Virus record (IMG/VR): IMGVR_UViG_2713896909_000009
Span: 32,001-96,000 of that record
Reading direction: 5' to 3' (one strand)
From: a virus
Lineage: Duplodnaviria; Heunggongvirae; Uroviricota; Caudoviricetes
DNA length: 64,000 nt
Shown: positions 1 to 1,697 of the stretch, piece after piece
Layout: each line of letters begins with the position of its first letter
How positions within the stretch are numbered: the stretch's first letter is position 1
Position numbers and translations under genes: made by a program
The notes under the pieces: generated by a model
Databases searched by the model: none
What the model saw: only the letters and a program-made list of their open reading frames with translations
Told to the model about the DNA's origin: nothing

Positions 1-1000
1 TGCTGTCTGTATCGAGTTGTTTTTCCAGAGGTTCGCCAATCCGGTAGTTAATTTCCAGGCCCAAACGGGTGTCATTCTGACCGCTCTTGCCCTGCTTATG
101 CTCTGCGCTCAGGGTCAGAAGAGGTACAGGCGTGTAGTTCACCCCAGCTGAAATAGCATGTGGGTTTTTCTGGCGTTTATCTTTACCAAACAGTCCTACC
201 TCATCGCCGTAATACTGTTCATACATCAGGCTTGCGCCAAGCTGTGGCCAGGCCGGTAAATAGCCCTCAGCACGGATATCCCAGCCATTCGCCGGACGTT
301 CCTGATAATCCTCAACATCCGGCGATTTTTTCCAGCCAGAAGCCCGGATATAACCATTGGCGCTCAGTTTAAGATAATCACGCCAGTATTCCGTACCAAT
401 ACCAATGCGGGTATGACTACGAGATAAATCATGGTCAATGAAGGTATTCACCCCCGCCATCCAGTCATTACCTGAGAAATGGCGCCAGCCGAAACCAATA
501 TTTGACTGAGTGCGATCGTCAGTGCGATGTATTGCCCCCTGAGTGAACAGCATATTTGTCGGCGTGTCATATATCGGATACAGCATTTCCAGCGAAGAAT
601 CCTTCAGCGAGAAATCTTTATCGGCATTCAGTTTGACGCGCGCGGTGCCATATTTCCCGAGCCACTCCTGGATTTCCTGGGTGGCCTTAGCAGTAGCCAT
701 TCCGGTAACAAAGTTGCGAGTCGCATCGCTATCCGGCTGACTGCTTAAAAATTTACCGGCATTCGCGGCAACCGACGCGATATTTTTTTCTGCATTATTG
801 TCAGTAGCAACCGCAGTATTTTCCGTAGTTAGACGTGGCAAAGTCGCATTATGCGCCCGCGCTGCCATTGTCGGTGTAAAAGTGACAGCCAATGGAAAAA
901 GAACCTGAACAGAGATGTTTGCCCATGCCACACATCTAGCCAAGGCGGAATAGCGGAAACGTTGTTGTTTATAAGTTTTATTTAAACGTAACATTGACAT
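1..1000 (-). CDS. Inverse autotransporter (intimin/invasin-family adhesin), N-terminal part; CDS runs off the window start
   Basis: Uninterrupted minus-strand frame from ATG at 998-1000 to position 1 (no stop in window, so absent from ORF track). Translation MSMLRLNK...GFGWRHFSGNDWMAGVNTFIDHDLSR...NGWDIRAEGYLPAWPQLG resembles the beta-barrel translocator region of YeeJ/intimin-type proteins. Confidence 0.6.
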   Translation of the reverse strand, partial: MSMLRLNKTYKQQRFRYSALARCVAWANISVQVLFPLAVTFTPTMAARAHNATLPRLTTENTAVATDNNAEKNIASVAANAGKFLSSQPDSDATRNFVTGMATAKATQEIQEWLGKYGTARVKLNADKDFSLKDSSLEMLYPIYDTPTNMLFTQGAIHRTDDRTQSNIGFGWRHFSGNDWMAGVNTFIDHDLSRSHTRIGIGTEYWRDYLKLSANGYIRASGWKKSPDVEDYQERPANGWDIRAEGYLPAWPQLGASLMYEQYYGDEVGLFGKDKRQKNPHAISAGVNYTPVPLLTLSAEHKQGKSGQNDTRLGLEINYRIGEPLEKQLDTDS

Positions 1001-1680
1001 AATTTCTTGATGAACGAGTTAACGAACATTTGCAACTGCGAGTAAAAACATTTGCTTTCAGAAATTTCCGAGAGAAAACCACTAGGGGGCGCGGATGCTA
1101 TCACAAACCAAAAAGTGTAACAATACATGAATCAGAGAATTAATACCTGTTATTCATCTGTCACCAATATGTTGTGATTGGTTAGCGTTAATGTTATTGG
1201 CTATGTTTGCCAAATAATAAGAGGGAGTATTTCAATACATGAGAGGATGATTTTTTAAACATGGGAAGTGAAATCTTTTCCATTATTACATGGTTTATAA
1301 ATTAGAAAAAACGCCCCAATCCATGAATAACGCCTTTAGAGAAATAACACCCCCATTTCTATATAATAACTTTGATGTAATGGACGATATATTAGAGCAT
1401 GTGGTACGCAATCAGATAATAACAATCTTTTCCTTGGATAAATTAGAGATTGATAGTGCGTCATATTCACGACATAATGGCACACAAGGATCTCTAGATT
1501 ATTGTTTATTACAATCGATACTATTAAGGTTTTTTTGTTGATAGAGAACAGCCAGAAATAGATCTCGGCCATAATGATTTTGAATGCCGTGTTCATATTT
1601 TCAGCTCCTATGATTGATTGGATACATGCCACGCCCCTTGCGGCATGTTTTTATTTTCACTTCCTCCGCTTTAAAAATCA

Positions 1681-1697
1681 AGATTTATTAGAGCAAT
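1681..1697 (-). promoter_or_regulatory. C1-repressor-operator-like site (16/17 match to AAATTTATTAGAGCAAT)
   Basis: AGATTTATTAGAGCAAT overlapping the stop of the upstream CDS; same 17-mer family recurs at 7 other loci in the window. Confidence 0.5.

Follow-up and report, generated by a model that had tools for sequence, protein, structure and literature searches.

The chromosomal Escherichia coli adhesin FdeC (EaeH) is a type Ve autotransporter in which an N-terminal IAT barrel without a LysM domain is followed by tandem Big_1 and Invasin_D3 domains, and inverse autotransporters of E. coli, FdeC among them, have adhesion and biofilm functions (PMC6714894). P1-like phage-plasmids, which occur in 41% of UK Escherichia albertii isolates and in several pathogenic E. 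coli lineages, are known to carry antimicrobial-resistance genes, cnf3, stb/eltAB and defence systems (bioRxiv 10.1101/2025.09.12.675607). In phage P1, the operator OpmgT and the predicted promoters PpmgT face the pmgT-pmgU-pmgV operon. Here we analysed a 64,000-nucleotide stretch of viral DNA (IMG/VR record IMGVR_UViG_2713896909_000009, positions 32,001 to 96,000; hereafter the window), whose left end encodes an FdeC-like adhesin downstream of OpmgT. We read this locus as a horizontally acquired, moron-type adhesin cassette in a P1-like phage-plasmid of E. albertii or E. coli, carrying its own leader and lying beside a resident C1 operator, and we give this reading a probability of about 0.75.

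An FdeC-like adhesin at the window edge

The minus-strand frame at window positions 2–1000 translates into 333 sense codons and stays open past the left edge. Its product matches IAT_beta (PF11924), the 12-stranded translocator barrel of inverse autotransporters, over residues 78–332 (Pfam, E = 3.2e-102), and residues 115–330 match the beta-barrels of invasin (4E1T, E = 1e-74) and intimin (4E1S, E = 7e-62) in the PDB, bearing out the earlier note on this DNA, in which the N-terminal 333 codons of an intimin/invasin-family protein had been recognized at this edge. A LysM domain was not found in the N-terminal part, as in FdeC. The second ATG (position 994), giving 331 codons, is probably the start in preference to the ATG at 1000, because chromosomal fdeC reads ATC in place of the first ATG and all annotated relatives begin with MLRLNK.

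In amino acids, the N-terminal part is 99.7% identical to its counterpart on the E. albertii plasmid p2RM9976, 96.4% to that of p108 and, over the first 331 residues, 89.7% to FdeC of E. coli 042; the N-terminus containing RFRYSALARCVAWANISVQVLFPLAVTFTP is nearly the same in the adhesin and FdeC. The full-length gene is intact in contig L055 (GCA_051895755.1), at a protein length of 1,209–1,211 amino acids, and the passenger, which lies beyond the window edge, holds seven Invasin_D3 and four Big_1 stretches in both L055 and p2RM9976. The exact protein is recorded as WP_059241968.1 from E. albertii, and public machine annotation calls such proteins 'inverse autotransporter beta domain-containing protein'. 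Because the NCBIfam matches (IatC, Ilp, intimin and SinH models) all stayed below threshold, we use no name finer than FdeC-like.

At the nucleotide level, chromosomal fdeC is 88% identical over the first kilobase, and the two genes have the last ~30 bp before the start codon in common, the similarity ending 29–35 bp upstream of it. Orthology with fdeC was considered and rejected: full-length amino-acid identity is ~66%, the adhesin has 1,209 residues against 1,417 in FdeC (~200 fewer, or roughly two immunoglobulin (Ig)-like domains), and the upstream region and neighbours differ, fdeC lying on the chromosome between aldo/keto reductase and helix-turn-helix regulator genes whereas the adhesin gene is plasmid-borne. 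By this comparison, the adhesin is a paralogue or variant of FdeC and not its orthologue. By analogy with FdeC it should be exported and serve adhesion or biofilm formation; its barrel would insert in the outer membrane and display the Ig-like Big_1/Invasin_D3 stalk.

P1 genes on both sides of the cassette

Window 1539–64000 follows P1 from 84449 to 24277 in reverse orientation, in ten collinear blocks of 94–98% identity; among them, window 27182–35086 corresponds to P1 61316–53412 with parA, parB, gene 23 and gene 22. The part next to the cargo (1539–6000) has matches in more than 800 P1-like plasmids besides phages P1 and P7, and the adjoining genes, all on the minus strand, are pap, pmgS, pmgR, pmgQ and ppp. 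Judged by this collinear P1 gene set, which takes in the morphogenesis, lysis, ban, dmt and lytic-replication genes along with the par region, the element is a P1-like phage-plasmid (Punavirus).

Leftward extension of the sequence, proposed in the earlier note, was obtained from L055, a plasmid-sized contig of 90.8 kb found by an exact-protein match to the Pap of the window, which differs from window 1–12203 by one mismatch (99.99% identity). Past the window edge, L055 gives the complete adhesin gene, a terminator hairpin right after its stop codon (about 14868–14900, −16.4 kcal/mol), ~250 non-coding base pairs, the 3′-terminal ~90 bp of humD, and then phd, doc, pdcA, pdcB, lpa, pacA and pacB. 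The P1 backbone restarts 0.3 kb past the adhesin stop in L055 and likewise in p2RM9976, a closed circular IncY plasmid of 85.8 kb from E. albertii, and both junctions recur in p2RM9976 and in the E. coli contig L059 (98.4% identical). The earlier note had offered two interpretations, adhesin cargo on a phage-plasmid or a boundary with non-phage DNA; P1 genes on both flanks in L055, L059 and p2RM9976 speak for the first, and the restart of the backbone so soon after the gene refutes the second for these relatives. The source organism of the phage-plasmid is most likely E. albertii.

Two of these relatives have peculiarities of their own. In p2RM9976, an IS630-family element with a two-open-reading-frame (ORF) transposase lies just downstream of the adhesin terminator (L004 40340–41371), and phd and the 5′ part of doc are missing, leaving the plasmid without the P1 addiction module that L055 keeps; both the insertion and the deletion are later events. 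In L059 (16482–17630), pacB is followed by Phage_ASH- and ORF6N/ANT-type (antirepressor-like) genes and not by c1 as in P1 and p2RM9976; by these genes, its immunity region may be different.

Junctions in a variable slot

P1 homology ends at 84449 (window 1539) and restarts at 87887. Between these points, an insert of ~4.49 kb replaces P1 84450–87886, which holds pmgT, pmgU, pmgV, upfM-O, hot, lxr and most of humD. The cassette is made up of a 538-bp AT-rich leader, the adhesin gene and an intrinsic terminator. Neither an insertion sequence (IS) nor a repeat, both sought as an insertion mechanism, was found at the junctions in L055. The right junction, to judge from the sequence at the break, is an illegitimate join. 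At the left junction, the alignment (A3) switches from SSU5-like to P1-like sequence inside the humD/umuD′ homology, between GGATGTACGGGCAG and TAATGCTG, and because of this switch we assign the left end to homologous recombination within humD/umuD′.

The slot varies widely among relatives. The segment P1 84100–84900 is held contiguously by 172 of the 947 PLSDB plasmids that match it; in most P1-like plasmids the break lies at P1 84482, in others at 84543 or 84579, and the P1 annotation records that the flanks of the EcoDXXI and R124 hsd genes match P1 up to 84482 and from 87969 onwards. The slot is thus a known hot spot, in which the breakpoint found here (84449) differs and the phenomenon is the same. 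The type I restriction–modification hsd cargo (EcoDXXI/R124) likewise replaces backbone at this recombination-prone site after P1 ~84450–84580; however, hsdR is convergent with PpmgT, whereas the adhesin cargo is co-oriented with it, breaks at 84449 instead of 84482 and has no flanking IS in L055. The cnf3, stb/eltAB and antimicrobial-resistance genes are cargo of P1-like phage-plasmids elsewhere; here the cargo type is an adhesin.

Some prophages carry morons that encode surface proteins, for example lom and bor of lambda. The cassette resembles these as a stand-alone gene that has a predicted promoter region and a terminator of its own, sits in phage DNA and likely benefits the lysogen, but its host element is a plasmid prophage and its gene is far larger (3.6 kb). 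As for moron features, the cassette has a terminator, is foreign in composition and has a homologous module elsewhere; its promoter is predicted.

A homologous module in SSU5-like phage-plasmids

Leader, gene and terminator are common to plasmids of 108–113 kb with SSU5-type content (RepB, dnaE, cobT, DNA ligase, primase and lambda-like tail genes in p108). Contigs L056–L058 are ~92% identical in nucleotides across leader and gene, L058 also across the terminator, and encode proteins of 1,209–1,211 amino acids that are 92–96% identical to the adhesin. The order in SSU5-like elements is DUF4942-PerC-MarR-adhesin-(umuD′ remnant)-apbC-metG. In p108_MLI108-3, pRHBSTW-00905_2 and L056–L058, the module shares leader, gene, terminator and umuD′-like remnant with the present locus, but there MarR and PerC lie upstream and apbC-metG adjoins, whereas here the module lacks both regulators and is flanked by P1 sequence. 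In the p108 and pRHBSTW copies the passenger is longer (1,414 amino acids) and more divergent. A tblastn search of the window, L055 and p2RM9976 turned up no homologue of MarR or PerC.

On these homologies, the SSU5-like phage-plasmid lineage is the most likely source of the cassette. We suggest that it left that lineage by a crossover in humD/umuD′ on the left and an illegitimate break just past the MarR stop on the right, and that the latter would have left the regulator genes behind.

Several observations bear on the module in its wider setting. The SSU5-like MarR and PerC genes lie upstream of the adhesin at L001 13536–14498 and L056 5551–6522. PerC/Pch-type proteins activate the locus of enterocyte effacement in attaching–effacing pathogens, and by analogy the PerC gene upstream of the adhesin may connect its regulation with the virulence of E. 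albertii. Next to the adhesin module, SSU5-like plasmids also carry a full-length chromosomal-type metG (methionine-tRNA ligase) and apbC (L001 4932–8223; L056 11118–14409). A shorter adhesin relative of 1,001 amino acids, 94.4% identical over the first kilobase, is encoded on IncF virulence plasmids that come from E. fergusonii (pEF03; L054 6989–9994) and Salmonella of poultry origin; there it has the aerobactin operon and IS66 as neighbours. Judging by these contexts, the adhesin lineage is generally mobile.

A composite leader with a candidate native promoter

The region between the adhesin gene and pap (1001–1687, 687 bp) has 34.5% GC, with 31.5% in 1136–1538, against 46.5% in the whole window and 48% in the flanks. 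It is composite: 1001–1538 comes from the adhesin cassette and 1539–1687 is P1 backbone. Homology of the cassette part reaches 1536 in pRHBSTW-00905_2 and 1457 in p108, and by these alignments 1001–1538 is essentially the whole MarR–adhesin intergenic region of SSU5-like phage-plasmids. The earlier note had described ~690 bp of AT-rich DNA with no convincing ORF; both points hold, but only ~150 bp of it is phage and the other 538 bp is the adhesin's own. Two leader ORFs (1290–1541, plus strand, 83 amino acids; 1336–1632, minus strand, 98 amino acids) were rejected as genes, having no Pfam match and an unconserved frame; indels that are not multiples of three break both among relatives (alignment A2).

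The best-conserved block of the leader, at about 1085–1135, is nearly invariant in seven of seven plasmid-borne copies and holds a candidate native promoter (Table 1). A generic promoter scan of window 850–2300 was uninformative (2 sites against 4.3 expected). For chromosomal fdeC, the work of Easton et al. (2014), as relayed in PMC6714894 and PMC11143625, describes control by H-NS and temperature with induction at 39–42 °C, and PMC11143625 shows induction at 42 °C. By analogy, the cassette promoter would probably be silenced by H-NS and responsive to the environment, and adhesin expression, if any, would start from the cassette's own promoter region, the block just described being the candidate.

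Across the right junction runs an ORF of 86 codons (Table 1) that is chimeric and probably meaningless: its first ~19 codons are those of a 28-residue hydrophobic ORF of P1 (P1 84392–84478), and the remainder is read-through into the AT-rich leader. The P1 ORF itself, MNTAFKIIMAAIYFWLFSITFGGIVAHG, is unannotated, has a good AGGAG ribosome-binding site and lies between PpmgT and pmgT; in the window it occupies 1540–1596 on the minus strand, where it is severed at about codon 19 and joined to the leader. Many IncF conjugative plasmids have an 84-bp piece over this ORF (P1 84399–84482), at 98.8% identity, immediately downstream of hsdR.

A resident C1 operator facing the cassette

At 1681–1697 the minus strand reads ATTGCTCTAATAAATCT, one mismatch from the C1 operator consensus ATTGCTCTAATAAATTT. 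The operator-like 17-mer singled out in the earlier note is identical at 17 of 17 positions to P1 OpmgT (former Op88) and sits at the homologous position, overlapping the pap stop codon; the curated P1 record labels that site 'monovalent C1-controlled operator OpmgT', protein_bind 'phage repressor C1'. We scanned the whole window for consensus matches with up to three mismatches and compared the outcome with 100 shuffles: 10 matches were found against 0.46 expected, and none of the shuffles reached 10. By coordinate mapping, eight of these (seven positions, with the overlapping ban half-sites counted as one) fall at P1 Op88, Op86a/b, Op83, Op82, Op72ab and Op68; the other two, at 38656 and 40805, are ~20–60 bp off the extrapolated positions of Op53 and Op51 and are assigned less strictly.

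The predicted promoters carried over from P1 overlap this operator. The P1pmgT boxes are unchanged (−35 TTGATT, 1681–1676; −10 GAAAAT, 1658–1653), and P2pmgT has its −35 box at 1696–1691 and a −10 box at 1673–1668 that reads TAAAGC here and TAAAAC in P1; these boxes are under the threshold of the generic promoter scan. In P1 they face pmgT-pmgU-pmgV and here the foreign adhesin cassette. Operator, P1pmgT boxes, leader hairpin and 19 codons of the small leader ORF are retained from the P1 arrangement, but the operon they served is lost. Op88 and the promoter are present in essentially all P1-like plasmids, whatever occupies the slot, and by this distribution they are older than the cargo and part of the P1 backbone.

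The retained hairpin (1625–1648) looks, by its plus-strand T-run, like a terminator for rightward transcription and not for a transcript running towards the adhesin. On the minus strand, no intrinsic terminator (hairpin of −7 kcal/mol or lower with a U-tail) was found from 1700 to 950, in a search that recovered both control terminators. No P1 late (Lpa) promoter box (consensus AAGTGACTT, from 11 annotated P1 late promoters) was found on either strand of window 1–2300, and therefore no late promoter feeds the adhesin. The earlier note had the gene abut the 'phage late region'; its neighbours pap, pmgS, pmgR, pmgQ and ppp are C1-controlled putative morphogenetic genes, and there is no Lpa box within 2.3 kb.

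In a lysogen, C1 bound at OpmgT would shut off PpmgT. With C1 inactivated, transcription from PpmgT could continue into the adhesin gene, since the stretch between them holds nothing terminator-like. Such C1-gated read-through is plausible from the layout, as a candidate route only and an accident of insertion. Because operator and promoter were in place before the cargo, which arrived with a control region of its own, we judge the coupling incidental, with a slim chance of functional importance, and take the native leader to be the probable working promoter. The coupling to the phage repressor suggested in the earlier note stands in so far as the C1 operator is genuine and its promoter is aimed at the adhesin; the operator was not recruited for the adhesin, being the resident pmgT site.

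Alternative readings

Several points weigh against a self-contained, expressed cassette of SSU5-like origin. The candidate native promoter is weak by consensus (8 of 12 positions plus TG), was read by eye and is under the promoter-scan threshold, and without MarR and PerC in cis, expression of the adhesin may be poor. The 208 bp of the cassette's 3′ flank (L055 14938–15145) match known SSU5-like plasmids only loosely, and the direction of transfer, from SSU5-like to P1-like, is drawn from context. PpmgT is a predicted promoter in P1 as well, and c1 lies outside the window and L055 and was seen only in the relative p2RM9976.

The alternative that survives best, although we consider it unlikely, is that the adhesin gene is a silent passenger, cut off from MarR and PerC, held down by H-NS, unexpressed and decaying. 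The missing regulators, the very AT-rich leader, the rarity of the variant (a handful of contigs) and, in p2RM9976, the neighbouring IS630-family element and partial deletion of phd/doc would all fit such a fate. However, the 3.6-kb ORF is intact in at least three P1-like backbones that have diverged by 1–3%, which argues for purifying selection or a recent origin. A co-resident SSU5-like plasmid could also supply the regulators in trans; 43 Escherichia genomes are on record as carrying phage-plasmids of two different types (bioRxiv 10.1101/2025.09.12.675607).

Less probable still is that PpmgT/OpmgT is the main promoter of the adhesin, so that a stable lysogen would not transcribe the gene and inactivation of C1 would switch it on. 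Both operator and predicted promoter lie 650–700 bp upstream and point the same way as the gene, no intrinsic terminator intervenes, and translation of the chimeric ORF (1596 to 1336) could shield part of the leader from Rho. Yet both elements are ancestral and present whatever fills the slot, and the cassette carries a complete native upstream region with a conserved promoter-like block. A 540-nt, AT-rich and mostly untranslated leader would be a likely target of H-NS and Rho, and control by C1 would confine the adhesin to lysis-committed cells without obvious benefit. We likewise regard as improbable a direct exchange of modules between SSU5-like and P1-like elements by umuD/humD crossover in which the adhesin was rewired, losing MarR/PerC, gaining a C1-repressed promoter and becoming tied to derepression. 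If this were true, cells would make the adhesin as phage repression lapses, for instance in the part of a population that is being induced.

Finally, that the left edge marks a phage/chromosome (or other non-phage) boundary, with the adhesin a host gene such as fdeC, is hardly credible: the N-terminal 1 kb is indeed 88% identical to a chromosomal gene found in about 5,000 E. coli chromosomes, but this identity stops just upstream of the start codon, P1 genes lie on both sides in the 99.99%-identical contig and two further relatives, and the closest full-length relatives are all on plasmid-sized contigs.

Other features of the element

The coordinates of the features described here are collected in Table 1. 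Elsewhere in the window, a 171-residue outer-membrane protein of the Ail/Lom/OmpX family is encoded at 36303–36818 on the minus strand (Pfam Ail_Lom 1.3e-22, OMP_b-brl 2.7e-24); because the stretch in which it lies (35086–36978) has no P1 counterpart, we count it as a second surface-protein cargo of the element. At 52608–58153, the invertible C-segment and cin region of P1 are replaced by other genes (Table 1), of which the GT4 glycosyltransferase and the acyltransferase may have a part in modifying surface polysaccharide or in conflict. The repA/inc region for plasmid replication (24932–27182) is unlike that of P1, and p2RM9976, a close relative, is typed as IncY. This region also encodes a T5orf172-domain protein, at 26307–27116 on the plus strand.

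Table 1. Features of the adhesin cassette, its P1-like surroundings and the replaced tail-fibre region (window coordinates)
Feature	Position	Strand	Basis or remarks
5′ part of FdeC-like inverse-autotransporter adhesin gene	1–1000	−	N-terminal region with a putative signal peptide, plus most of the IAT beta-barrel
Cassette's own AT-rich upstream region, 33% GC, no gene	1001–1538	−	Homology to SSU5-like phage-plasmids; GC content
Candidate native promoter (predicted)	1095–1123	−	TTGTTA (1123–1118), 17-nt spacer ending TGA, TAGCAT (1100–1095); extended −10-like
Chimeric ORF, 86 amino acids	1336–1596	−	ATG at 1596; AGGAG ribosome-binding site at 1609–1605; alignment A1; no Pfam match
Right junction, cargo/P1 backbone	1538/1539		P1 84449; overlap of at most 2 bp; interrupts a small P1 ORF
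GC-rich pmgT-leader hairpin of P1, T-run on plus strand only	1625–1648	+	Sequence; conserved in P1
Predicted sigma-70 promoters P1pmgT and P2pmgT	1653–1696	−	P1 annotation carried over by alignment; predictions in P1 too
C1 repressor operator OpmgT (former Op88), monovalent	1681–1697	−	Identity to the annotated P1 site; overlaps the PpmgT −35 boxes
pap, HAD-type 3′-phosphatase/polynucleotide kinase	1688–2203	−	Pfam HAD_PNKP; last P1 backbone gene before the slot
Tail-fibre gene, different C-terminus	51003–54521	+	C-segment/cin replacement
Macro-domain protein	54518–55387	+	C-segment/cin replacement
Tail-fibre assembly protein	55406–55990	+	C-segment/cin replacement
GT4 glycosyltransferase	56045–57193	−	C-segment/cin replacement
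Hexapeptide acyltransferase	57180–57731	−	C-segment/cin replacement

Implications

The adhesin-cassette variant is rare, on a handful of E. albertii and E. coli contigs. A full-text literature search for 'phage-plasmid' with 'inverse autotransporter' gave no match, a search for pmgT returned unrelated papers only, and the phage-plasmid survey cited above (bioRxiv 10.1101/2025.09.12.675607) makes no mention of fdeC, intimin or autotransporters. Accessory, virulence or colonisation cargo in a variable phage-plasmid slot is of a kind already known, to which this locus adds an adhesin example. It also carries a caution: a backbone operator may merely happen to face new cargo, and no regulatory meaning follows from orientation alone. 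The clean junctions offer a concrete case of module exchange between two phage-plasmid families, and the intact FdeC-family adhesin adds colonisation factors to the traits that P1-like phage-plasmids can spread by infection.

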